This document shows positions 1,356 through 27,593 of a DNA stretch of 38,195 bases, piece by piece. The notes below the pieces were generated by a model. It saw only the letters and a list, made by a program, of their open reading frames with translations. It searched no databases and had not been told where the DNA came from. This stretch comes from a virus: the UHGV virus genome UHGV-0058093; one strand, written 5' to 3'. Numbering within the stretch: position 1 is the stretch's first letter; every line of letters begins with the position of its first letter. Both the position numbers and the translations under genes were made by a program.

Positions 1356-1736
1356 ATGATAGATGCGACCCATCAAAAGTTTATAGACTTTTATCTTCAA
1401 TCCTATAGCCCAGAGCTTGCAGCAATTAAAGCAGGATATCCAAAGGAGGAAGCTTTAAGTATAGGGATTGACTTGCTGGCTAATGATGAGATAGCGGAAG
1501 CAATATCAGTAAGAGAAGCTCAACTTGATAAAGCAGCAGCTAATATGAAGATGACAAAAGAAAAACTCCTAAGGACGTTATACTACCAATATTCACAGGC
1601 GGTTAAGTTTAACAAGACTACAGACGCTCTGAATATACTAGAGAGGTTAGCTAAGTGGAGTGGGTTACAGCCTGATGAGTTGGTTATCAACCCAGTTAAT
1701 CTGGTTATTAATAATGTAGAGGAAGGTAAATTATAA
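1356..1736 (+). CDS. terS: Terminase small subunit
   Basis: HQKFIDFYL...AAIKAGY...LL N-terminal HTH pattern typical of Terminase_2; lies upstream of terL. Confidence 0.85.
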   Translation: MIDATHQKFIDFYLQSYSPELAAIKAGYPKEEALSIGIDLLANDEIAEAISVREAQLDKAAANMKMTKEKLLRTLYYQYSQAVKFNKTTDALNILERLAKWSGLQPDELVINPVNLVINNVEEGKL

Positions 1737-1910: not shown

Positions 1911-2174
1911 GTGGCAGAATATATTATAAACTCAAGGAAATATGGTAAACAAGTAGTTCTGCTTGATGATGAAGATTATGAAAGAGTAATAAAAGAAAAG
2001 TATTCATTATCAGTAACGTATGATAAAACTATTAATGGATTTTATGTAGCAAGAGTAAATAGAAAACAGATACGTTTAGGAGCTTTTAAAACGTTTGAAG
2101 AAGCTGTTAAATGTAGAATACAAGCAGAGGAAAAATATTTCCCTAACTCTAAGGAGGTGAGGTTTGATAGATGA
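1911..2174 (+). CDS. AP2-domain protein; HNH-AP2 homing endonuclease remnant lacking the HNH core
   Basis: N-terminal LLDDEDYERV joined directly to AP2-like RKQIRLGAFKTFEEAVKCRIQAEEKYF; strong RBS AAGGAGGT; GTG start. Confidence 0.7.
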   Translation: MAEYIINSRKYGKQVVLLDDEDYERVIKEKYSLSVTYDKTINGFYVARVNRKQIRLGAFKTFEEAVKCRIQAEEKYFPNSKEVRFDR

Positions 2175-3551
2175 GTTATGTTGTTAATTTATTACCAGCA
2201 CAGAAGGAGTTTTGGGAGATACCCCATAACTACGACAGAGACGTGGCTCTCTATCAATGACCGAGGGGGTTTTGGAAGCGGCAAGACTTTTTGTGGAAGC
2301 CTTCTTGGTATAACATTAGCTCTCAAGTATGCTGGTATTAAAGGATTAGTCGGAGCACAAACATTACCTCTTTTAAGAGATACAACACTAGCTACATATA
2401 TTGAACATTTAGATAAGTTAGGATGTCCTTATACTTATTTAAAGAGTGAAAATAAATTAGTATTCCCTAATAAATCTGAAATACTATTCAGGTTCTTAGA
2501 GGAAGATAGCAAACTTAAATCTTTAAACTTAGGTTTTATTGAGATTGAAGAAATGAGTGATACCCCTGAAAGTACATTCAGGATGTTGTTATCACGTCTA
2601 CGTCAAGAGAAGAAACCTGAATGGGGGAAAGATTTTAAGTATAGATTATTTGGTCACACAAACCCCCAACAATCTTTAGGATGGATATATGAGTATTTTA
2701 AGAAAAACCCACAACCTAATTATCGACGTATTATTGCTCCCACCGCTCAAAACATATATTTACCTGCAGGGTATCTTCAATCGCTAAAAGAAGTTTACTC
2801 TGATGAGTATTATAGAATAAATGTTTTAGGCGAGGATTGTAGCGAAACAGATACGCTAGTCACAAAAGGTTTCAATAAAGAAGTTCAAGTACGAGATGAT
2901 TTGAAATTGGATAAATCTTTACCAATCCACATTACCTGCGACTTTAACGTAGACCCTATGTGTTGGTATATAGCTCAAATTAAAGATGGTAATATATATT
3001 ATCTTTATGAAGTTGTTAGAGAGAATACAACTACAGACGCTACAGCACAGGACGTAGCCGAGCTACTTTATGATTGCAAACATTTACCAATAGAGATAAA
3101 CGGAGACGCTTCTGGAGACTTTAGAACTACTAAAGGTGTTGACTATGTTTACTTACGTAATAACTTAGAACGTAATGGTTTTAAGAATGTTAGTTTAAAA
3201 GTAACCCATAAGAACCCTCCGATTGAATACAGGATATCTTGTTGGAACAATATGATTAAAGGTGCTGGTGATACCCACCATATCTTTATTCACGAACAAT
3301 GTAAATATTTAATTTACAATATTGAGAACCTAGAAGTTCAAGCTGGTACAAGTAAACCTAAGTTACCAACTGCTTCAAGGATTAAGAGCGATAGCAAGGC
3401 TAAGTTCTTAGGACACCCAATAGACGCTGCAAGTTATCTTGTATGTTTATATTTTCCAGTTAAACGTATGACAGTAGATAACTTCAAAGAACAATCAAAT
3501 AATATGGGTGTTGATATATTTGGTGGTAAGTACGATAAAAGATTAATATAG
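2171..3551 (+). CDS. terL: Terminase large subunit, split reading frame: segment 1 at 2171-2257, 7-nt insert at 2258-2264, segment 2 at 2265-3551
   Basis: Adenine-binding motif LLPAQKEF in segment 1; Walker A GGFGSGKT, Walker B FIEIEEM, coupling motif HTNP and RNase H-like nuclease (CDFNVDP, GDASG, HPIDA) in segment 2. Confidence 0.9.
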
Positions 3552-3562
3552 GAGACAAAACC

Positions 3563-4153
3563 TTGGTGAGTTTTATATGTAAACATTGTGGCAAAGAATA
3601 TCACAAACCTGAATGTTTTACTAAAATAGGTTCATCATTTTGTTCTAGAAAATGTAAGGATAATTACAATAAAAATAAACATAAAACATTTAAGAACAAT
3701 ACTTTTAAAATAGTAGATAATTATTGTTTACTTAATAATTATTTTAAAATAGATATAGAAGATATTCTTAGAATAGAAAAATTAAATTGCTATATATCTA
3801 AAATGAATACTGGTTATGGTTGTTTTGTTATGAATAAAAAACATATATTACTTCATAGATGGTTATTAGACTGTCCAAAAGATTTATATGTCGACCATAG
3901 AAATAGAGATAAGTCAGATAACAGAAAATCTAATCTTAATATTGTTACTCCATCTAAGAATACTCAAAACAGAAAAAGACAAAGTAATAATAAAACTGGA
4001 TTTATAGGAATACATAAAACAAAATATGGATATAGAGCGGGCATTCAAGTAGCTGGTAAGGAAATAAGAAAACATTTTCCTGATTTAATACAAGCTGTTA
4101 AATGGAGAAAGAAAATGGAAAAAGAATTAAATTATTATAAAGGGGGTGTCTAA
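3563..4153 (+). CDS. Free-standing HNH homing endonuclease with N-terminal Zn-finger and C-terminal AP2-like domain
   Basis: CKHC...FCSRKC; LLHRWLL...VDHRNRDKSDNRKSNL; NNKTGFIGI; lies between terL and portal. Confidence 0.9.
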   Translation: MVSFICKHCGKEYHKPECFTKIGSSFCSRKCKDNYNKNKHKTFKNNTFKIVDNYCLLNNYFKIDIEDILRIEKLNCYISKMNTGYGCFVMNKKHILLHRWLLDCPKDLYVDHRNRDKSDNRKSNLNIVTPSKNTQNRKRQSNNKTGFIGIHKTKYGYRAGIQVAGKEIRKHFPDLIQAVKWRKKMEKELNYYKGGV

Positions 4154-5996
4154 AATCGTAAGCTATTTCTATAAGGCAAATAGGAAAGTAAGATTAACTC
4201 CTGAAAAGAGAGATACGATATCAAGTGAAATTAATAACCTTTTTAAATCTTACTATACTGATTTAGAAGTACCAAAGGATGAGACAGCAGCTCTACTTAA
4301 TGAGTTGTATCCTTCTTTGAAAACTAATTCAGATAAGATTAATAAGATACCTAGTATCTATGAACAATATAAAACTTATATGAGTGCTTTACACAGAGCT
4401 TGCTATCCTAGCTTAGAAGCTATCGTAGATATTAGAGGTTTAGACTTAAGAAGTAACGATTTAGCAGGTACTTACAAAGCAAGTCTTATCTATGATTGGT
4501 ATAATATAGATTTAATCTCAACACTAGATAAAGTGCTTGATGATTGGGTTAAAAAAGGTGAAGCTGCTTTATATGTTTGCTGGAAAGAAGAAACTGTACA
4601 GATAGAACAGGATGTTCCAGTAGTTGAGTATGATGTAGAGAATATGATACCTAAGCTTTCTACTGAAACAGTTAAGAGAGATTTACAAACCTTCAAGGCT
4701 GTAGATGTAAAAAGGATAGACCCATTTAATCTATACTTCGATAAATCCCAAGTAGATAACTGGGAGCACTGTCGTAAGATATACAGAGACTTTGTTCCTG
4801 TTGAAACAGTGTTAGCTAATGAGGGATATAATCTAACTAAAGAAGAACGTAAAGATATTAGAGAGCTTGTATATAAATCTAACAAACAAAACAAAAACCA
4901 ATATGAAACTAAGATAGACGAGAATACTAAAGTATACGGTTCTACTGTTGAAGTATTGGAATTTGAAGGCGATTTTATTGACCCTGATACTTGTGAAGTA
5001 CTTTATAATATGGAAGCTACAGTAGTAGCTGGCAAGTATCTAGCAAGATTTGAGAAGTCAAGTAAACCTCAAACATCTATTATTTGGGGAGCATATCTTA
5101 AAAGGCCAGATACAGGTAGAGGTCAATCTCCTTTAACAATCCCTTCAATATTAAACGCTGTACAGAATATGTGTGCGGATATAATGATGACATCTTGGAA
5201 GCTAAATACTTATCCAACATTCTTAGCTCCTAAAGGTGCATTACCTCTCTACACAGATGTACAAGCAGGAAGAGTCGTAGAATATGAACCAGATATGATG
5301 AGTGGGGCTACGCCTACTAAGTTAGACTTTACTTCTGGGTTAAGAGGATTTGAGTTCTCTGATTTCTTCCAAAGAAAGATGGAGAATGCAACAGGTATTA
5401 ACCAGTATATGCAAGGTGCTAATGATGGTAGCGTAAGAACTGCTAGTGAAGCAAGTTATATTCATAGTGGTGCTACAATGAGAATGGCAGAAGAGTCTCA
5501 CCTATTTACCCACAACATAATATACAAGTTGGTTAGGAAGTATGCTTTGTTTAAAAAGGTATATGATACTGGTAATATTGAAATACCAGTTGGCCCTAAT
5601 CAGTATGCTAAAGTAACAGATGAAGTAAGAAATGGTAATTACTACTTTATCATTGGGGGTAGCCAGTCTGCTGTAGAGAGAGATGGTGAAACCCAAAAGT
5701 TGTTTAACTTATTAGGTAGTCCAGTATTCCAATCATTATCTGCTGTACTAGACCCAGTTACCGCAGCAGAGTTTATGAAGTGGATATTGAATAGAATGAA
5801 TTTCCAAGACACTGACCAAGTGATGGAACTAATGACACTTAATGGACAGCTCTATAAGATAGCAGCTCAACTAGGAATTTCTAATAGTAGCTTCGCTGGA
5901 TTTAGAAATGATATGTTAGCTAGGTTCCCAGAGCAAGTACCTAATATAGTTAATCAAATGCTTGCAGAGAAAAGAGCAAATGAAGTTCAACAATAA
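4146..5996 (+). CDS. Portal protein (podovirus type)
   Basis: 616 aa after terL; RIDPFNLYFD, GRGQSP and MENATGINQYMQG...RTASE patterns typical of podoviral portals. Confidence 0.85.
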   Translation: MSKIVSYFYKANRKVRLTPEKRDTISSEINNLFKSYYTDLEVPKDETAALLNELYPSLKTNSDKINKIPSIYEQYKTYMSALHRACYPSLEAIVDIRGLDLRSNDLAGTYKASLIYDWYNIDLISTLDKVLDDWVKKGEAALYVCWKEETVQIEQDVPVVEYDVENMIPKLSTETVKRDLQTFKAVDVKRIDPFNLYFDKSQVDNWEHCRKIYRDFVPVETVLANEGYNLTKEERKDIRELVYKSNKQNKNQYETKIDENTKVYGSTVEVLEFEGDFIDPDTCEVLYNMEATVVAGKYLARFEKSSKPQTSIIWGAYLKRPDTGRGQSPLTIPSILNAVQNMCADIMMTSWKLNTYPTFLAPKGALPLYTDVQAGRVVEYEPDMMSGATPTKLDFTSGLRGFEFSDFFQRKMENATGINQYMQGANDGSVRTASEASYIHSGATMRMAEESHLFTHNIIYKLVRKYALFKKVYDTGNIEIPVGPNQYAKVTDEVRNGNYYFIIGGSQSAVERDGETQKLFNLLGSPVFQSLSAVLDPVTAAEFMKWILNRMNFQDTDQVMELMTLNGQLYKIAAQLGISNSSFAGFRNDMLARFPEQVPNIVNQMLAEKRANEVQQ

Positions 5997-7438: not shown

Positions 7439-8104
7439 AACCTATAATTTTGCCTTCCGACTAAAAACTCCGCTAAACGGGGAAGCCCTTCAAATTAATG
7501 GGTAATCCCGTACCAAGCTATCATAGCGATATGTAGAGAGGTCTAACGACTAGAGCTGAAACTCACGTAGTTAATAATGCTCCACGAAAACGGAGGATAG
7601 AATGAAAGAATATCAAAATAGAGAATTATTAACCCAAGCTTATGAAACTTTAGGTTCATTACAAAAAGTAGCTGACTATTATAAAGTTAGTAAGAAGTTA
7701 ATTCTCAACTATATGAAGAAATTAGATATACCAAGAAATAAAAGAATAAAGAAAATTAAACCACCTGATACTTATCATAAAGGTTATATAACTACTTGGA
7801 ATGGATATAAAAAGGTTAAAGCGCCTATAGACCATCCTTACAAAGATAATAAGGGTTATATAATGGAGCATAGATTAGTGATGGAACAAAGCATTGGTAG
7901 GTATCTAGATAAGAATGAAGAAGTTCATCATATAGATTATAATAAGATGAATAATGATATTAGTAATTTACTATTAGTTACTAAAACCGAACATAGACGT
8001 ATTCATCTAAAAGATAGTATTCATCCTATTAAGATATAGTCTGAACTAACGGGATGATAAACCGTTAGATGTATAGGATAAAGAGCCTATACGATAACAC
8101 AATG
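7439..8104 (+). mobile_element. Group I intron (666 nt) in the major capsid gene
   Basis: Exon ends in U; P1 GGAAGGT/GCCTTCC with U-G wobble; R-like CTAACGACTAG; S-like AAGATATAGTCTG; P9 hairpins; terminal G at 8104; in-frame splice. Confidence 0.92.
7602..8039 (+). CDS. Intron-encoded HNH homing endonuclease with N-terminal HTH
   Basis: MEHRLVME...EEVHHIDYNKMNNDISNL; RBS GGAGG; stop overlaps the intron S element. Confidence 0.9.
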   Translation: MKEYQNRELLTQAYETLGSLQKVADYYKVSKKLILNYMKKLDIPRNKRIKKIKPPDTYHKGYITTWNGYKKVKAPIDHPYKDNKGYIMEHRLVMEQSIGRYLDKNEEVHHIDYNKMNNDISNLLLVTKTEHRRIHLKDSIHPIKI

Positions 8105-9009: not shown

Positions 9010-9744
9010 ATGGGTAAAGGAAAAAATTATTTTGAATTATGTAACGATATTCTAACAGAGTTATTCTATGAAAAGATAGCTACATTTGAAGAGTTGGATA
9101 CGTTACCAGAAGGAATTAAAGTTAAGCAAGACCTTAATAATGCTTTATCTTTTATTTGTAATAATGAAGAAAGAGCTTGGAAGTTTAGAGAGGTAAGTAG
9201 ATTTCTACAGCTAGTAGCAAAGCAAGGTGCTTATCCTCTAGAGAATGGCTTTATTAAATACCTAAGATATGCTGATATGCCTATAGTATTAAGCTATATT
9301 GAAGGTCACGAATACTTAGCTTATGCAGAAGGAATGCCATTGAATTACTGGATGGATGATGGAGAGATTAATCTTTATCCTGTACCAAGTGAAGACCAGA
9401 ATGGTAGATTAATTAAGGTAAGCTTATTAACTTACGACTATGCTAAAGATAAATGTGGTGTAGCTAAACCTTTAATGGAATATGAGACTGATGAACCTAT
9501 TATCCCAGCTCATCATAGAGATATACTTAAATGGAGAGTATGTTCTGACTGGAGAGGAAGCGTTAATGACGCTAAGGCTGCATTCTATGAAAGGAAGTAT
9601 AAGAAAGCATACGCTGCATTATGTAACGACCAAAGATTAACAAGTGGTTATCCTGCTGGATTTGATATAATGCCTTCAAATAACACAGCACAGAATGCTA
9701 TAATGAATGCGTTTTACAACCCTAGAACTAGGAGAATTATTTAA
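9010..9744 (+). CDS. Head-tail adaptor / tail tubular protein A-like
   Basis: Position after the capsid gene; size; INLYPVP and DEPIIPAHHRDIL adaptor-like patterns. Confidence 0.7.
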   Translation: MGKGKNYFELCNDILTELFYEKIATFEELDTLPEGIKVKQDLNNALSFICNNEERAWKFREVSRFLQLVAKQGAYPLENGFIKYLRYADMPIVLSYIEGHEYLAYAEGMPLNYWMDDGEINLYPVPSEDQNGRLIKVSLLTYDYAKDKCGVAKPLMEYETDEPIIPAHHRDILKWRVCSDWRGSVNDAKAAFYERKYKKAYAALCNDQRLTSGYPAGFDIMPSNNTAQNAIMNAFYNPRTRRII

Positions 9745-11528
9745 TGGCTGGAACTATTTCATACTTCAACCTAACTGGTGGACTTAATACAATTCAAGGA
9801 TTGGGTACAATTAACCAGACTAACAAACGTACCGAAAGTCCCGATATGAAGAATGTTGAGTATTATAAACTTGGTGGTTTAATTACTATGAATGGTAATA
9901 CTCAATTTGGAGATACCTTCGATAGTCCAATCTCGTTAGGTTATGAATATATATATGGTAACAATAAATATATGATTGTTATTACTACCAATAGTGAAGT
10001 GTTTATATACGATAAAGTATCTGGTAGTTTTAAATTAATATTCAAGTTTGAGAATAAAAACACACGTCATAGTATCTGCTCTTTTAATAACGGTATTATA
10101 ATGAGTAACGGTATTGACGATTTAGTCTTCTACCAGTATGGAAGAAAGGATTTAATAGCAACCAGCGTAAGTACAACAGGTGCTAATAATAAAGTTACAG
10201 GTACTAATACAAATTTCCTCACAGAGCTGTCTGTAGGTGATTATATCATACTTGGAAATGATGAGGATATATTTGCTAATAAATATAGAATAGTCTCAAT
10301 AGAAAGCGATACAGAGCTGTCTCTAGATAGAAATTATCCTACTGCACAAACTTCTGTAGCTTTATATCTTAGTGATTTATCAGCTTGTAATGCTGTATTT
10401 AAAACACAAGGAGAAAGTCCTGTAGAAACTGACGTAAGAGGTTTAGCCTTAAACTCTTATAACGGTAGAATATTTGTAGGTGGTACTGATGGTATTCTTT
10501 ACTACTCAGAGGTAGGACTTATCCACGGATGGGAACAACAATATGGAGCTGGTGCTATCCCTGCATTCTATGATGATAACTCTGACTTTACAGCACTGGG
10601 ATTGTTTGATAAGTATTTAATAATCTTTAAAAGAGAAAGATGTTATCTACTAGATGGTAATGATACTAATGATACTAATTGGACAGTAACACCGTACTCA
10701 TTATATACTTGTGATAGTCAACAGTCTTGGATAGACGCTGATAGTTCTTTATTAGTATATTCAAGAAATGCTGGTGGTATTTATCCTGTATTAAAGCGTA
10801 CAATATATAACCCTATCTTTCAAGGTAGTGAGTTGTCAATGAAGATTAGAGATAGTTTTCAGTTTATCAATGAAGCTAGATTTGATTATATATTCCCAGT
10901 ATATCATCCAGAAAAGAAGTACGTTATGTTTTATGTGCCGTTATTAACTGGTAAAGGTTCTAATACAGCATTTATTTATGATGTTACTTCTAAGACTTGG
11001 CTAAAAAGAGAAGTATCTCAAAATGTTACGATAGCTTTTAGGTTTGATAATGAAATCTATATAGGTACTACTGATGGTAAAATTCTTAAAGAGTTTTCTG
11101 GTTTAACTTTTGACGGAAGTCCTATTGAATTCTACTGGAAGTCACCTTCATTTACATTCGGACAAGGTACTAACTTCTTATCAGCTAGAGAGTTTAGAAT
11201 AAAGATGAGTGAGGAATATACCAATAACTTTAGGGTAAGAAACTCTAGGGATGGTAAGACTACTTATACCGAAAGAAAGATAAACAGTAATGAGAATGCT
11301 TTTATTGGTCTTGTATGGGATGTAGATGAGAATACAGAAAGTATTACAGATACCGTATGGGATGAAGATAGTTGGGTAGTAAGTAGTTATATTACTAAAC
11401 GATTTCCTTTAATGAACCAGATATTTCAGACTATGAGTGTTGAGTTTTACGGTAATGGTTTGAATGAAGCTATGTGTATTTATGGGTTTGAAATAGATGG
11501 GGTACAATTAGAGGAAGTACCTTGGTAA
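9744..11528 (+). CDS. Tail nozzle / stabilisation protein (tail tubular B or P22 gp10-like beta-propeller)
   Basis: N-terminal FNLTGGLN...ESPDMKNV; beta-rich; YNGRIFVG...LYYSE; synteny. Confidence 0.7.
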   Translation: MAGTISYFNLTGGLNTIQGLGTINQTNKRTESPDMKNVEYYKLGGLITMNGNTQFGDTFDSPISLGYEYIYGNNKYMIVITTNSEVFIYDKVSGSFKLIFKFENKNTRHSICSFNNGIIMSNGIDDLVFYQYGRKDLIATSVSTTGANNKVTGTNTNFLTELSVGDYIILGNDEDIFANKYRIVSIESDTELSLDRNYPTAQTSVALYLSDLSACNAVFKTQGESPVETDVRGLALNSYNGRIFVGGTDGILYYSEVGLIHGWEQQYGAGAIPAFYDDNSDFTALGLFDKYLIIFKRERCYLLDGNDTNDTNWTVTPYSLYTCDSQQSWIDADSSLLVYSRNAGGIYPVLKRTIYNPIFQGSELSMKIRDSFQFINEARFDYIFPVYHPEKKYVMFYVPLLTGKGSNTAFIYDVTSKTWLKREVSQNVTIAFRFDNEIYIGTTDGKILKEFSGLTFDGSPIEFYWKSPSFTFGQGTNFLSAREFRIKMSEEYTNNFRVRNSRDGKTTYTERKINSNENAFIGLVWDVDENTESITDTVWDEDSWVVSSYITKRFPLMNQIFQTMSVEFYGNGLNEAMCIYGFEIDGVQLEEVPW

Positions 11529-18598: not shown

Positions 18599-19672
18599 AT
18601 GGCAACAAATGAAAATAATCCTTGTACCTGTACTACTCCAGAGTATACAATAATATTAAATCAACAAGGCCCTTCTGGTAGGCAAGGAGCAACAGGACAG
18701 AATGGATTTAGTCCAATAATAGCTGTTGGTACAAATACAAGAGATACATATAATCTAGTAATTACTACAGCAGATGGTGTTATAACAACTCCTAACTTAA
18801 TATCAGAACCGATACCTAGTGGTGGTATTAATGGTCAGGTATTAACTAATTTTGGTAATGATGTTTATGGTTGGGGTACACTGCCTAATGCTACAACCGA
18901 GTCACAAGGGGTAGTATATTTATCAACTGATGAAGATTTTCAACCTGATGAAGAAGGTAATGTGGATGACACTACAGCTTGTACTCCACAAACAGTAGTT
19001 GATTATGTTCAGAGTGTGGGCTTACCTATTGCTTCTACTACTACTCTTGGTGGAATTAAAGTAGGTGATGGATTATCGATAACAGATGATGGAGTACTAA
19101 GTGCTAGTGGTGGAGGAAGTGAACTAAACCACATTCAAGATACTGAACTCGGTGTTCAAATAGATGATGGAGACCCTATACCTCAAACTGGAACTTATTA
19201 TTATAAAAATATAGAATTAAGGAGTGTCTCTTCTGCTAGCATAAGTGACCCGAGTGTACAGATTGAAGCTTACGTATACACATATCAGGATGGTACTCTT
19301 GAGCAAAGAAATCAAGAAACTATTATAAATGTTAGTTCTGGACAGTTTTCGGTAGGGAATTCTAATACACAATTAAGACTACATAGTAGTGATGAAATAC
19401 AAGCAGAGGTAGATTTAGGAGTTCCTAAGGTTGTAACTACTGGACTAAGATATAAAACTCTAACTAGTACAGAATATGAGGCATTATCAACAAAAGACGC
19501 AGATACAATGTATAGACTTACTGATACTAATGAAGTATATCTAGGCACTATCCCTTTAACAGGTGGAGCTAGTGCTCAATATAAAACATTACTAATAAAC
19601 AATTATGATAATGCTACTCAAACAAACTTAGGCGGTAGCACTACAGTACAAGTAACAGATACGGAGGTATAA
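18599..19672 (+). CDS. Tail fibre protein
   Basis: Short collagen-like GPSGRQGATGQNGFSP; LPIASTTTLGGIKVGDGLSITDDGVLSA fibre repeat; start moved to ATG 18599 after RBS AGGAG. Confidence 0.75.
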   Translation: MATNENNPCTCTTPEYTIILNQQGPSGRQGATGQNGFSPIIAVGTNTRDTYNLVITTADGVITTPNLISEPIPSGGINGQVLTNFGNDVYGWGTLPNATTESQGVVYLSTDEDFQPDEEGNVDDTTACTPQTVVDYVQSVGLPIASTTTLGGIKVGDGLSITDDGVLSASGGGSELNHIQDTELGVQIDDGDPIPQTGTYYYKNIELRSVSSASISDPSVQIEAYVYTYQDGTLEQRNQETIINVSSGQFSVGNSNTQLRLHSSDEIQAEVDLGVPKVVTTGLRYKTLTSTEYEALSTKDADTMYRLTDTNEVYLGTIPLTGGASAQYKTLLINNYDNATQTNLGGSTTVQVTDTEV

Positions 19673-19675
19673 CGA

Positions 19676-20251
19676 ATGTTATTAAATAATTTTAGAAGGG
19701 TATTGGTAAATACAATATCGGGCAACCTTGGCCTATCTCAAACAAGGGGTATGACTGGAGAAGTAAAAACAACTGGGGGTTCAGTGTATAAACCCAGTAG
19801 CCCAAATTATATAGACTCTCCACAAATAGGTGGTTTACAGTCCAACTGTAATATTTGCACAAGCGGTACAAATTATGATAGTACAAGTATTCCAACTGGG
19901 AATTTTAGTTTACAAGGGTGTGAAATATATTTAGGTACTGGTAATGTTACTCCAACTATTGATGATTATAAACTTTCAGGGGAGCTAGTAACTGTCTTAA
20001 AATCTCAAGAACAAAGTACAACTGCTAATAATAATAGTATTACATTTTCTGCTATAGCAACAAATAATACCGAAAGTCCTGTAACTATAAAGGAAATAGG
20101 GTTAGGAGGATATTATAGTAATCCTAATTGTGTATTCCTATTAACTAGAGATGTGTTAGCTACTCCTGTAACTCTAAATACTGGAGATAGTAAAACATTC
20201 TCGATTACAATAGACCTTAGAAGTTTAACAGATACTACAGTAAATGAATAA
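19676..20251 (+). CDS. Fibre-associated virion protein
   Basis: IYLGTGNVTPTIDDYKL...VTIKEIGL...LLTRDVLATPVTL pattern seen in tail proteins. Confidence 0.55.
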   Translation: MLLNNFRRVLVNTISGNLGLSQTRGMTGEVKTTGGSVYKPSSPNYIDSPQIGGLQSNCNICTSGTNYDSTSIPTGNFSLQGCEIYLGTGNVTPTIDDYKLSGELVTVLKSQEQSTTANNNSITFSAIATNNTESPVTIKEIGLGGYYSNPNCVFLLTRDVLATPVTLNTGDSKTFSITIDLRSLTDTTVNE

Positions 20252-20269
20252 CTAGGAAGGAGATATTTG

Positions 20270-20305
20270 ATGGCTTGTAAGAAAAGACGTAAAAGAGGTA
20301 AATAG
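20270..20305 (+). CDS. Basic micropeptide MACKKRRKRGK
   Basis: Strong RBS AGGAAGGAG at canonical spacing; 11 codons then TAG. Confidence 0.5.
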   Translation: MACKKRRKRGK

Positions 20306-20310
20306 TTAGT

Positions 20311-20412
20311 TATTAAATCTAAGGGTACTAGAAGGCGTCTCAAGACGGGGTAAATATTAAACTATCCTGTCTTAAACAAACCCTTCTTAAAATTGATTGT
20401 AGATACCTTAAA
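20311..20412 (-). repeat. Copy of dispersed ~100-bp element (reverse orientation)
   Basis: Shares a perfect 17-mer TTTAAGGTATCTACAAT and a similar far end with 22031-22143. Confidence 0.7.
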
Positions 20413-20429
20413 TAAAAGGAGATATATTT

Positions 20430-20729
20430 ATGGGATTATTTAATAAAATTAAAAACTGGTTTATCAAACGTAGGATAGAAAGAATTAAAAGAGACTTACC
20501 TAAGTTTAAAAATAAACTAAGAACAGTACTACTTGTAGGATTACAGAAACTAGATACTGATAAGGTTGATAAAGTAGAGACTCAACTTATCATCTTGGGT
20601 ATTCAAGCAGCTCAATCTTACTTTGGTTGTAATGTATTAGATGATGAGATTAAGAAAACAATAGCAGAAGAAGTAGTAGAAATACTAGGTAAGATAAATC
20701 GTAAAGCACAAGATATAGTGGAGGGTTAA
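20430..20729 (+). CDS. Hypothetical protein
   Basis: RBS AAGGAG; 99 aa with an amphipathic basic N-terminus. Confidence 0.7.
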   Translation: MGLFNKIKNWFIKRRIERIKRDLPKFKNKLRTVLLVGLQKLDTDKVDKVETQLIILGIQAAQSYFGCNVLDDEIKKTIAEEVVEILGKINRKAQDIVEG

Positions 20730-20732
20730 TAG

Positions 20733-21023
20733 ATGGATATAAACAATATAGTATCACCAGAATTATTAAGACAATATCAGTCTTATACCCAACGTTTTCC
20801 AGAAGGTACTTCCCAACAATTCTTTAATTATATAAGAAGAAACCAACCTCAACTAGCTAATTATGCAAGAAGATTATTAGGTACAGAAGCTAGAACATTG
20901 AGAGGTCTTGGACCCGTTGGAGATATTGTTTATTATGGAACGCTTCCAATGAGAAAGGATGAGATACTTAAAGAGTATAATATGTATATAGATGATAATG
21001 GAAATATAACAGGTAGGATTTAA
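20733..21023 (+). CDS. Hypothetical protein sharing its N-terminal motif with the 12412 ejection protein
   Basis: YQSYTQRFPEGTSQQFFNYIRRNQP versus YNNYKSRFPDGRPDQFLNLMKRNFP. Confidence 0.65.
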   Translation: MDINNIVSPELLRQYQSYTQRFPEGTSQQFFNYIRRNQPQLANYARRLLGTEARTLRGLGPVGDIVYYGTLPMRKDEILKEYNMYIDDNGNITGRI

Positions 21024-21566
21024 ATGTCAATAGATATAGATAAACTAGATAAAACAAAAACATATGTAGTACTTGAATGGGGAACATCAAAGATATCTAA
21101 ACTAATAGACAGGTTTACAAGAGAGTTCTTTCCTTCTGCTAGCTTTAGACCTTCCCACGTACTAGCTCTTATATACAATAGAGGTTGGTGGATATACGAG
21201 AGCCACCTCAAACCAGAACCTAAGTATAAGATACCTAGTGGTACAAGGAAGTATAGATGGAAGATATTTGAAAAGGTATTCCCTAAGATTATATATTCTA
21301 CTGGTGCAGTATATCCGTTAGAGTTAGATGTTAAGCAACTAGAGAATAACTTAGGATTACCTTATGGGGTTAAGGATATTATAGAGTTTGTCAAAGTAGT
21401 TCTCTCTCCTCATTACGACCAGATGAATAGAAAAGGTATGATATGTAGTGAGTATATAGCTACTGGATGTACTGCTATAAGAGAATATTTTAAATCAGCT
21501 CCTTATAAAATAACTCCAGCTCATTTCTTTAAATACTTTATAGAAAACAAAATCCACCCAGTATAG
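21024..21566 (+). CDS. Permuted papain-like amidase (YiiX/YaeF, C92-like)
   Basis: SHV...IYES precedes MICSEYIA...ITP, the His-before-Cys order of permuted NlpC/P60 enzymes. Confidence 0.65.
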   Translation: MSIDIDKLDKTKTYVVLEWGTSKISKLIDRFTREFFPSASFRPSHVLALIYNRGWWIYESHLKPEPKYKIPSGTRKYRWKIFEKVFPKIIYSTGAVYPLELDVKQLENNLGLPYGVKDIIEFVKVVLSPHYDQMNRKGMICSEYIATGCTAIREYFKSAPYKITPAHFFKYFIENKIHPV

Positions 21567-24995: not shown

Positions 24996-27593
24996 CTACT
25001 CCTCTAACAATACACATTTAATCTTACCATCAACAATTGGTATTGGTGTTACTGCAAAGCTATCCTTTTCAACATATCCATATAATATCCCAGCCTGCCA
25101 GTTGGGGTCGTCTATATATTCTGGGTTTAAATCACAAAGACAGAAGCTTTCAAACCAAGCTAGATATCTCTCAGGAGTACGGTAATAGTATGCCCCACCT
25201 CTATGGGTATTTTGAGTTACTAATGTTTTCCCCTTACTTCTGACTATTAAAGTCCCATTATCTACTGATACACAACTTACTCGTCCGTTATATGGTACTA
25301 CTGTAACGTTGTCCCTAGTGATACAAGTTAATGGATTAGTGTTTACTGTTAGTATTGAATGGTTTAATCTTTTAAGTTGACTGCTTCTAATACCGTTTTT
25401 ACTAAATATTTCTTGCAATAAATCTAGTTCAGTAGTTTTCTTGCTACTTATTTGATAGCTATTCTTAGCGTCTTTATTTTTATTACCATCAGTAAGAGAA
25501 TATTCATCAAGAATAATTAATGCTTGTTCCTTATTAGCATCCTTTAGAATAGTTGGCAAATGTTTACCAGTAGGGAAGTAAGTGTTTATAATAGGCTTTG
25601 CATATCTAGTCTTAATTCTGATTTTAGTAGTTCCAAATTTTGTTTTTGCCTCACTATAATCATACCCCAACTCATTTAATAACGCTTTTAGGTGGGTTAT
25701 TTTTCTTTCCTTTTTTAAATGAAATCTTACTCCATAGTCCTCTAAACTACCATCTGCTGAGATGTTAACCAATAAACGTATAAAAGCTTCTGATAAATCT
25801 ATTCCTTTTGACTCATTATTCAATGCCCCACACATAAACTTGTAACGCTTACTAGTAGTTGCAAGATACTTAGCATCAAATTCTTCTAGTTTATTACTAT
25901 CCTTATTAAAGCCTAACAATCCGTGCTTATCGGTAACCATTATATCGACAACTGTAGATTTTATATGGTACAGTTCTTTATAATTATCATAAACAAACTT
26001 GTCGTTTACTTTGTTAAATTCAAAGGCTTGAGTATCTTTATTGATAGTCCCTACAGTGTCTCCGATATTAACATCAATAATAGGCACCCACCCAGTTGGT
26101 GTTAATACTTCAACATCCTCTGAAAAACAATGCGAACTAATACCACTACTGTCGTGCTTTTCCAGTTCTCCACGTGCTGTATATGCTGAGAACTTCCTAA
26201 CCATATCACCGTGGATAATCTTAAGACTCCCTAGTTTAAAACCTTTGTCTTTATATTCGATATTAAATTTATCTAACCCTAAAAGATTAGGAAGCTTTAG
26301 TGCGTCAAGACTATACAGCTCAGGATGTTTCTTAAGATAGCGTTCTAGCCTTGAACAATTACCAGTGATAGCCACCTTTCCGTCTATCCTAGTTATTAAT
26401 GTTCCATTTTTTGTAGTCAGGCAATAACTGTAATTGTTATAACTAATCTTTTTTATTGATTGTTGTTGTCTTCCATATTTGTAATTAGTTTGAAACATTA
26501 ATGTTTTAGTTCTATTTTTACCATTAAAGCCACTTGTGGACTCTACTTTAATTTTAGTTGCATAACCGTTTTTAATACAAACCTCTTGAAGAATATCTAA
26601 GTCATTATCGTTTACACTATAGAAATAATTTCTTTGGTCTTTTTTAGAACCATCAGTTATTACAATAGTATTAATGAATGCTTCAAAATGTTCACCTGTT
26701 AGGTTTTTAAATTCTTGTGGAAATTGTTTCTTGCCATTTAGTAGATTGAATATTACTCTTGCATCCTCTCCGTAAATTCTAATATAATAAGGTTGTAATT
26801 TATTGACACCATATTTCTTGCAAAGTCTAAAGGTATATTTAATATTCATCTCTTCAAGTAAATCCTTGAGTGCTTCTATTTTTCTAGGCTTGCTTAATTT
26901 AAATTGTATTCTCTTCTTTCTATCACTATAATTTACAATACATCCATCTGTTACAACCCAAGTTAATAATCGGACTTCGTTGACAGAGAGCTTACCATTA
27001 TAAGGGATTAGAGTATTTGAACACGGCTTTATTAAATGGGCAAGATTTTTTGTCTGCTCATTATATATATCTTTAGCTAATACTTTTTCATCTCCTAATA
27101 AGACTTGATGCCTATCAGATACTACTTGTTTACTCATTCTAGTTTCTATCTCAATCATCTCTTTTTGGTATGATTTAATATAATCCTGAATAGTATCAGT
27201 AACAACACAATCTCTTTGGATATCGTAATTTAATAAAGTAACTTTCCTGCGCTGTTCAACAATATCTTTAACATTAACCCACCCATCAGTTGTTAATATA
27301 TCAGTTCTTTTATCTAAGCAATGATTCCCTTTTACAAAGACTATACGTGCATTTGGGGCAAGTTGGCGTAGTTTCTTAAAGAACTTTTGAGCCATATCTA
27401 TCTCTTTCTGTAAGCTATTAATTCTAGCAGGGTCTTTATCAAAAGAACTTACATCATAGAAATCTAAGATATCTCCGTTAAGAATTATTGTATCAATTGG
27501 ATGTTGTTCTAAGAATTCATAAACAGCCTTTAAAGCTTTATCATCTTGATAAGGAAAGTGTATATCACTTAGTACTATAAACTTATTCTTCAT
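24996..27593 (-). CDS. Calcineurin-like metallophosphoesterase interrupted by two inteins (spliced product about 237 aa)
   Basis: SDIH, GDILD, GNH|C, IIHG and SH|TH motifs are restored once both inteins are removed. Confidence 0.92.
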   Translation of the reverse strand: MKNKFIVLSDIHFPYQDDKALKAVYEFLEQHPIDTIILNGDILDFYDVSSFDKDPARINSLQKEIDMAQKFFKKLRQLAPNARIVFVKGNHCLDKRTDILTTDGWVNVKDIVEQRRKVTLLNYDIQRDCVVTDTIQDYIKSYQKEMIEIETRMSKQVVSDRHQVLLGDEKVLAKDIYNEQTKNLAHLIKPCSNTLIPYNGKLSVNEVRLLTWVVTDGCIVNYSDRKKRIQFKLSKPRKIEALKDLLEEMNIKYTFRLCKKYGVNKLQPYYIRIYGEDARVIFNLLNGKKQFPQEFKNLTGEHFEAFINTIVITDGSKKDQRNYFYSVNDNDLDILQEVCIKNGYATKIKVESTSGFNGKNRTKTLMFQTNYKYGRQQQSIKKISYNNYSYCLTTKNGTLITRIDGKVAITGNCSRLERYLKKHPELYSLDALKLPNLLGLDKFNIEYKDKGFKLGSLKIIHGDMVRKFSAYTARGELEKHDSSGISSHCFSEDVEVLTPTGWVPIIDVNIGDTVGTINKDTQAFEFNKVNDKFVYDNYKELYHIKSTVVDIMVTDKHGLLGFNKDSNKLEEFDAKYLATTSKRYKFMCGALNNESKGIDLSEAFIRLLVNISADGSLEDYGVRFHLKKERKITHLKALLNELGYDYSEAKTKFGTTKIRIKTRYAKPIINTYFPTGKHLPTILKDANKEQALIILDEYSLTDGNKNKDAKNSYQISSKKTTELDLLQEIFSKNGIRSSQLKRLNHSILTVNTNPLTCITRDNVTVVPYNGRVSCVSVDNGTLIVRSKGKTLVTQNTHRGGAYYYRTPERYLAWFESFCLCDLNPEYIDDPNWQAGILYGYVEKDSFAVTPIPIVDGKIKCVLLEE
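25209..26129 (-). mobile_element. Intein 2 (307 aa) with LAGLIDADG endonuclease
   Basis: Starts CFSEDVEVLTPTGW; block B VTDKH; LVNISADGS and EYSLTDGN; ends VTQN with +1 Thr. Confidence 0.92.
26358..27320 (-). mobile_element. Intein 1 (321 aa) with LAGLIDADG endonuclease
   Basis: Starts CLDKRTDILTTDGW; block B VSDRH; LTWVVTDGC and TIVITDGS; ends ITGN with +1 Cys. Confidence 0.92.

Follow-up and report, generated by a model that had tools for sequence, protein, structure and literature searches.

A stop-led gap of 7 nt ahead of Walker A in a phage terminase gene, likely delivered by a homing cassette and likely hopped by ribosomes

Introduction

How can a phage produce its large terminase subunit (TerL) when the gene is interrupted, immediately before Walker A, by a stop codon and a change of reading frame? 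This question is raised by the window analysed here, which comprises 38,195 of the 38,250 bases of a complete virus record with terminal repeats. An earlier reading, made from the sequence alone, had described a stop-containing insert of 7 nt at this position and had put forward ribosomal hopping as the leading mechanism. The insert is confirmed by the sequence, by alignment with a continuous homologue and by its presence in separate contigs, and the follow-up supports the hop as the mechanism that we infer. The 7 bases are probably a non-coding gap in the only terL of the phage that was brought in by a homing cassette, and ribosomes probably hop it. What is new here is a helix of the start region that co-varies with the position of the gap and is a candidate bypass signal. 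Literature searches, outside whose coverage most subscription journals lie, retrieved no publication on these gaps or on the start-codon helix.

Layout of the terL locus

The terL start codon (ATG, 2171-2173) shares bases with the TGA that ends the upstream ORF (ATGA), and the frame opened there encodes MSYVVNLLPAQKEFWEIPHNYDRDVALYQ, 29 codons ending VALYQ, before it meets TGA 2258-2260. The 7 extra nucleotides are followed by GGG GGT TTT GGA AGC GGC AAG ACT in the +1 frame, which reads GGFGSGKT and onward to 3551 (Table 1). Two pieces of the window, 2171-2278 in one frame and 2262-3548 in the next, align with the continuous homologue L377, and no further match between L377 and the window was found; therefore, this is the sole terL of the phage. 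L377 also matches PDB entry 4idh, 'Gene 2 protein', weakly (E 0.012), with Walker A aligned. The alignment with L377 from 2171 agrees with the start that the sequence-only reading had preferred to 2178. The 2178 start was rejected as the gene because its frame is not conserved and contains a stop in L002, whose terL body is 99% identical.

Table 1. Features of the terL locus in the window
Feature	Position	Strand	Evidence
terS, terminase small subunit	1356..1736	+	Pfam PF03592, E 3e-11
HNH-AP2 homing endonuclease gene, HNH core lost through an in-frame deletion of 76 codons	1911..2174	+	Stop overlaps terL start
Extended Shine-Dalgarno (SD) of terL, partly pairing with the insert (predicted: 2156-2158 with 2260-2262)	2150..2162	+	Sequence, pair table
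5' arm, covers the start codon and complements 2241-2257	2164..2181	+	Pair probabilities 0.88-1.0; synonymous null 1/1000
terL ORF1, 29 codons, with the LLPAQ motif and the strand before Walker A	2171..2257	+	Aligns to L377 N-terminus; purifying selection
Putative take-off codon CAA	2255-2257	+	Last codon of terL ORF1
Inner hairpin, predicted inside the long-helix loop	2208..2231	+	-8.0 kcal/mol
Target (3' arm) of the long helix; its last bases are the take-off codon	2241..2257	+	Folds
7-nt coding gap: stop TGA 2258-2260, putative landing triplet CGA 2262-2264	2258..2264	+	Homology placement
terL ORF2, Walker A onward (ATPase and nuclease)	2265..3551	+	Pfam PF04466 (Terminase_3), E 1e-13

ORF2 has no start codon near Walker A. 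Comparison with three relatives showed that terL is the only shared gene that is broken, leaving aside intron and intein-like insertions; the portal gene is unbroken against three relatives. Reassignment of stop codons was considered and rejected, because each type of stop ends conserved genes in the window (20 TAA, 11 TAG and 3 TGA). Annotated phages gave no blastn match, and the search of the whole window against Rfam at E values up to 1 returned no match and also missed the real intron of the capsid gene.

A family of short inserts in related terminases

Relatives were drawn from viral, metagenome and genome collections and duplicates were removed. Among 197 distinct 5' ends that were parsed, 21 were broken. 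A later search yielded 147 loci, 41 of them encoding this terL and 16 of these new, and all 16 are continuous, which brings the count to 21 broken genes out of 213. Thus, the alignment of related terminases that had been suggested from the sequence alone reveals that other short inserts recur. Pattern searches, which selected for extra length and did not require a stop, gave 56 matches that were mostly unrelated or already known; they contributed the new alleles L349 and L354, and L346 came from a separate search. Apparent breaks in L015/L182, L093, L114, L179, L196, L228 and L230 were discarded as false, being due to a wrong upstream motif. A distant group of continuous genes (about 50% identity) is found mostly in Gastranaerophilales/Melainabacteria genomes.

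The 21 broken genes contain 17 distinct inserts, to which the contigs of two sequencing runs add an 18th. The inserts are 4-10 nt long, fall in all three phases and occupy five junctions of the motif YQGG(F/Y)GSGKT: after Q (6, 7 and 10 nt), after the second G (8 nt), after Y (4 nt), after the next G (8 and 9 nt) and after S (5, 6 and 9 nt). The first triplet is a stop in frame with ORF1 in every one of the 18 (13 TGA, 3 TAA and 2 TAG). Three genes, L018, L020 and L185, carry two inserts, located 15 nt apart (L018:3890-4030 and likewise in the other two).

The sequence-only reading had kept an assembly error among its alternatives. However, the same insert is present at the same site in separate contigs, namely L001, L002 and two DNA contigs of run X1, which show changed letters but no gap, and for this reason it is not such an error. 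All 176 continuous homologues read YxGG(Y/F/V/M)GSGKT without a single indel, and therefore extra residues look untolerated at this place. In 10 of 12 pairs, ORF1 displays a pS of 0.56-1.04 versus a pN of 0-0.24, the other two pairs being nearly identical, and both parts of terL are under purifying selection. The recurrence of the inserts, the lack of natural indels and the selection on ORF1 together exclude an assembly error and make both decay and tolerated extra residues unlikely. As judged from sequence comparison, the insert family is real, selected and mobile, and its mode of translation is what the following sections propose. The sequencing-run data consist of contigs, most of whose 'RNA' labels were guessed. 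One contig of run X17 keeps a 4-nt insert; as no X17 contig bridges the capsid intron to prove its RNA origin, this contig says nothing on excision.

An HNH-AP2 homing cassette and a swapped 5' tract

The ORF directly upstream of terL (87 aa) is 95% identical to a 163-aa protein of L001 outside the 76-codon gap, and the L001 protein gives an HNH_3 match and a below-cutoff AP2 match in Pfam. By tblastn, an HNH-AP2 gene or remnant is located directly upstream of 12 of the 21 broken genes (five of which supplied queries and two of which are weak remnants) compared with none of the 176 continuous ones. Nine broken genes have no endonuclease match; remnants are visible by eye in five of them and in four no remnant is visible. 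The continuous terL of L015 and the endonuclease of L016 start behind one and the same ribosome-binding sequence.

A quick tree of the terL body with 106 rows (all broken genes, the continuous genes of at least 50.5% identity and three added rows) placed the 21 broken genes in one clade of 30 rows, where at least eight gains or losses are needed. Identical terL bodies carry different inserts (L002 and L003), and near-identical bodies occur with an insert (L016) and without it (L015). The divergence within these pairs stops at the GKT codons: L016 and L015 differ in 42 of 140 columns before these codons versus 6 of 261 after them, and L002 and L003 in 37 of 137 versus 5 of 261. This pattern indicates that the 5' tract has been swapped between lineages, as in T4 mobA/gene 60, and the gap likely arrived with the HNH-AP2 homing endonuclease cassette. 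From the end of the tract at GKT and the precedent of MobA, we infer that Walker A DNA is cut by the nuclease and protected by the insert. As with MobA and the gap of gene 60, the insert would disrupt the nuclease target, which would lie in the Walker A codons. The proposal from the sequence alone that the insert may destroy a homing-endonuclease target is in this way strengthened by linkage and by the tract swap.

The terL start is coupled to the upstream ORF in 16 of 21 broken genes versus 71 of 168 continuous ones, so that coupling is enriched, not universal. As a requirement it was rejected, because it is absent from 5 of the 21. In L007, L009, L020 and L185, deletions of the endonuclease leave mini-ORFs of 13-27 codons whose ends still coincide with the terL start, and this hints at selection for continued translational coupling. 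The spacer between terS and terL (1737-1910, + strand) is occupied by unrelated, structured-looking sequence in different lineages; that of L015 (G002) holds a tRNA-Met, with similar sequence there in L016, L037 and L185. A role of 1737-1910 as a trans-acting RNA was rejected, because unrelated sequence replaces it in other insert-bearing loci.

Other mobile elements populate the same genome. The major capsid gene is interrupted by a group I intron (7439-8104, + strand) whose 5' exon ends in T, which itself ends in G and which displays S- and R-like motifs; it carries an HNH ORF (7602-8039). A second free-standing HNH gene (3563-4153, + strand) lies between terL and the portal gene and is optional, since a contig of run X17 joins across 3573-4166. 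An 865-aa ORF (24996-27593, - strand), presumably a metallophosphoesterase-like gene, matches a 236-aa protein of relatives in three separate segments, and its two large in-frame insertions are probably inteins. Further, a homologue of the window ORF 9744-11528 in G001:C115 (ORF about 18728-21334, + strand) contains an in-frame insertion of about 270 aa.

A helix that connects the start codon with the gap

The sequence TAAGGAGGTGA occupies 2150-2160, upstream of ATG 2171. The sequence-only reading had the start region pairing with the bases that precede the stop, over 21 bp between 2161-2182 and 2240-2262. Such a long helix is indeed predicted, with a core of 17 bp between the two arms of Table 1 (2164-2181 with 2241-2257), a bulged U2172 and probabilities of 0.88-1.0; the figure of 21 bp was slightly generous, because ACC 2260-2262 is predicted to pair better with 2156-2158 than with 2161-2163. 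Compared with dinucleotide shuffles, the region is modestly stable (z -1.85, 10 of 200 as good), and its arm-target duplex was equalled by 1 in 1000 sequences of a synonymous-codon null. The inner hairpin noted earlier is also predicted (Table 1). In contrast, the GGCTCTCT/AGGGGGTT hairpin that was thought to loop out the insert did not hold as a general feature: with -5.3 it is weak, the long helix competes with it, and it is not conserved in the 18 loci, where local folds around the insert range from -2.6 to -8.1 kcal/mol and have no common shape.

Comparison of alleles extended this picture. The arm-target duplex has a mean of -18.6 kcal/mol in 18 broken genes versus -9.2 in 100 continuous 5' ends, and reaches -20.4 to -23.3 kcal/mol in three alleles found later. 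For the same two sets, pairing of the SD with an anti-SD sequence scored -17.0 and -6.2, respectively. Full-context folds of 15 alleles had the bases at -10 to -4 from the stop paired with the start region at a mean probability of 0.70-0.73; in 169 continuous genes this pairing is at most 0.15 at any position. Start regions are predicted to be complementary to 8-18 bases before the stop in nearly all alleles. Eight alleles from three sites have a common register, picked after inspection of the data, in which the start-codon G is opposite the fourth base upstream of the stop. These alleles differ in sequence on both strands, L007 and L008 by a synonymous two-sided change. Within this register, each arm forms 6-8 of 8 pairs with its own target, none of 38 cross-site pairs reaches 7, and the continuous genes scoring at least 7 number 7, 0 and 0 of 169 at the three sites. 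L346, L349, L354, L013 and the group of the window use other registers with 8-18 pairs. L003 and L010 have arm and target in common, and the loop between them follows each host lineage. The start-region arm thus appears to be rewritten when the insert moves, although P-values overstate the independence of the alleles because these are related.

The helix is dominant in 11 of the 15 full-context folds and not in the other 4. The duplex of L017 is no better than its synonymous null (480 of 1000), and the own target is the best partner of the arm in only 6 of 12 alleles. Strong duplexes also occur in the continuous genes L023 (-20.2), L116 (-18.0), L024 (-17.7) and L484 (-25.3). The continuous L377 (1390-1510) keeps a very strong SD (-19.0), and in L116 the start-region duplex ends at the YQ codons; both genes are possible precise revertants. 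In the double-insert gene L018, inspection by eye suggests that the SD region pairs before the first insert and the start arm before the second, pairings that would form in sequence or as a pseudoknot.

How the gap may be skipped

That every insert opens with a stop suggests ribosomes pausing while the A site is empty. The insert-final triplets pair with the anticodon of the take-off codon at 29 of 54 positions versus 14-15 expected (18 versus 7.7 after collapsing to 10 alleles), which fits re-pairing in the P site, with the confounding that pyrimidine-rich insert ends also pair with the SD; a matched landing triplet can also arise by duplication. The sequence-only reading had suggested re-pairing at a near-matched triplet. 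As the key signal in general, such re-pairing is not sustained: the landing is cognate in 3 of 18 inserts, the CAA/CGA of the window is near-cognate, and four landings (CAA/CAG to CTT/CTC) match at one position of three. Since cognate landings are few and the SD may confound the statistic, we propose that the hop is driven mainly by the helix. A mini-SD located 5-7 nt before the landing codon is absent in the window; the Gly-Gly codons provide one, by eye, in the 4-nt alleles.

According to the proposed mechanism, the ribosome would stall when CAA occupies the P site and UGA the A site; it would then slide over 7 nt, re-pair loosely with CGA and restart decoding at GGG. The start-region arm would re-pair with the mRNA leaving the paused ribosome and pull it forward like a ratchet, which would make a matched landing codon dispensable over 4-10 nt. 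Once closed, the helix would hide the SD and the start codon and so act as an initiation gate that limits trailing ribosomes, and the very strong SD together with, in most alleles, coupling to the upstream ORF would compensate for the hidden start. Success would be needed from only a fraction of ribosomes. Both roles of the helix, as driver of the hop and as gate, are put forward as hypotheses. The hop predicts the junction peptide DVALYQGGFGSGK, and a +1 frameshift would instead yield DVALYQDR.

A bolder reading, which we hold only tentatively and consider rather doubtful, is that the start arm acts as a rewritable guide that alone sets the skip of 4-10 bases, either through the ribosome or by marking a micro-intron. 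If this reading is true, some ten base changes at the start of the gene would re-target the skip with no need for matched codons, and the arm would represent a new class of programmable recoding signal that has been re-targeted at least five times within one gene.

The helix often extends up to or into the stop, a stretch that a paused ribosome would be expected to cover. This keeps removal at the RNA level alive, because a guide fits such a reach at least as well. The helix would then direct a cut-and-join reaction in which micro-introns of 4-10 nt are removed by a nuclease of host or phage and a ligase or by a trans-acting ribozyme, an explanation that we regard as improbable. It would agree with a helix that, in most alleles, ends close to or at the 5' edge of the insert and that follows the insert when it moves, with the capacity of both flanks to pair with the arm in L017, bulging the insert out, and with the poorly matched landing triplets, which would need no explaining. 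However, the base before the insert can be A, G, C or T, so there is no shared splice-site base, and none of the 18 inserts ends in G under homology placement, one alternative placement in the window doing so after an A. The geometry at the 3' edge varies, and a stop as first triplet, found in all 18, would not be needed. G003 carries a 7-nt insert and lacks the capsid group I intron, and G001 carries the intron and lacks an insert; as the excising ribozyme the intron was rejected, since G003 has no match to the intron ends, which leaves room for a ribozyme unrelated to it.

Ordinary recoding would consist here of a +1 frameshift at CAA-UGA-C (YQ-D-R-GG) and elsewhere of readthrough or a -1 shift, with a TerL that tolerates one to three additional residues. 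As in prfB, +1 frameshifting is usually triggered by a stop that immediately follows the shift codon; most alleles of 4, 7 and 10 nt leave the +1 frame open, and in that frame the difference between the window and L001 is synonymous (CGA/CGT). Nevertheless, we consider recoding quite unlikely, because the three phases would require three different mechanisms, many inserts lie inside the P-loop, where the continuous homologues have no indel, the +1 frame meets TAA in L020 and L185, and the genetic code is not reassigned in the window.

Skipping by RNA polymerase, in which the helix would zip up to the nascent 3' end and push the polymerase until the RNA re-anneals 4-10 nt downstream, is very unlikely: the geometry would be suited by a helix extending as far as the take-off position and by a downstream triplet that matches in part, but the codon-phased stop at the first position of all 18 inserts is left unexplained, a translating ribosome would cover the arms and no run of U follows the helix. 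A split or dead gene (ORF1 and ORF2 made separately, defective phages using a helper terminase, or an artefact) might be imagined from records that are all uncultured assemblies, but is hardly credible given an ORF2 without a start near Walker A, a 2178 frame that is not conserved, purifying selection on both parts, the integrity of the other genes shared with three relatives (intron and intein-like insertions aside) and the recurrence of inserts in many records and runs.

Significance

Natural translational bypassing has been documented for only a few systems and, in the literature as far as available, the determinant of the landing site is debated for gene 60. The clade described here constitutes a natural allelic series with 18 gaps of 4-10 nt at five sites, with landings from matched to nearly unmatched, single and double gaps and near-identical uninterrupted sisters, and the cassette, of about 130 nt, fits a reporter. 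With ribosomal hopping as the preferred reading, homing endonucleases gain a further route into a conserved motif, one that involves neither an intron nor an intein. Gene-calling programs cut these terminases short or assign them a wrong start. A short skip signal that can be re-targeted would be a useful tool.

Comparison with known bypass and excision systems

The terL gap works like the T4 gene 60/MobA cassette, yet it is not a member of that family, because the size of the gap, the host gene, the matched codons and the take-off hairpin do not correspond. As far as the accessible parts of the sources describe them, both systems have the stop directly after the take-off codon (in 18 of 18 inserts here), a gap within a conserved motif of an essential gene, an upstream free-standing HNH gene that is often decayed or lost, and a cassette that replaces the 5' part of the gene and moves between lineages. 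For MobA, the gene 60 gap protects the nuclease target and the cassette is mobile (10.1101/2022.08.31.505936); for terL, cleavage is put forward by analogy. In gene 60, pairing of the exiting mRNA has been proposed as the forward driver, the nature of which is still debated (10.1101/2024.12.09.627546). Pairing behind the ribosome is likewise proposed here, in the form of a long-range helix with the start codon. Unlike the 50-nt gap of gene 60, found at one junction (plus or minus one codon), the terL gaps measure 4-10 nt and occupy five junctions. The codons for take-off and landing always match in the gene 60 family, as the available portion of that work describes (10.1101/2022.08.31.505936), and landings are mostly near-cognate in terL, which also has no room for a take-off stem-loop and whose helix uses the SD and the start codon. 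Gene 60 encodes a topoisomerase, and the word 'terminase' does not occur in the main text of the gene 60 study (10.1101/2022.08.31.505936).

Other systems resemble the terL gaps in single aspects. As in group I introns, a helix is located at the 5' boundary, and a genuine group I intron resides in the capsid gene of the same phage. In group I introns and in trans excision-splicing, the helix marks the 5' boundary next to a U at the 5' site, and a G is terminal. The terL inserts lack a U at the 5' site, a terminal G and a catalytic core, and they occur independently of the capsid intron (G001, G003). Unlike the prfB +1 frameshift, they fall in three phases, lack an SD before CAA and correspond to no natural indel. 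The byps of Magnusiomyces mitochondria are also many short skipped inserts that, in the material available, tolerate looser matching of take-off and landing, but they belong to a eukaryotic organelle. Their trigger is avoided sense codons, and the inserts are longer.

The closest parallel in gene and size comes from the Streptomyces phage phiHau3 and two prophages, where terminase gaps of 7 and 10 nt were described in 3 of 100 genes, and mass spectrometry showed bypass in E. coli of a 10-nt gap whose UUA had been replaced by UAA (PMC10732093, available part). Both cases have a short gap at a conserved junction of the large terminase and two gaps in one gene, and in both the conserved junctions argue against frameshifting. 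The phiHau3 trigger is the rare UUA, read as a sensor of the host state, whereas all terL triggers are stops, and the description accessible for phiHau3 includes neither a homing endonuclease nor a start-codon helix (PMC10732093). A 2016 review, in its accessible part, knew of no natural in-frame stop hop (PMC5009743), and the 6- and 9-nt alleles of terL would be natural hops of exactly this kind.
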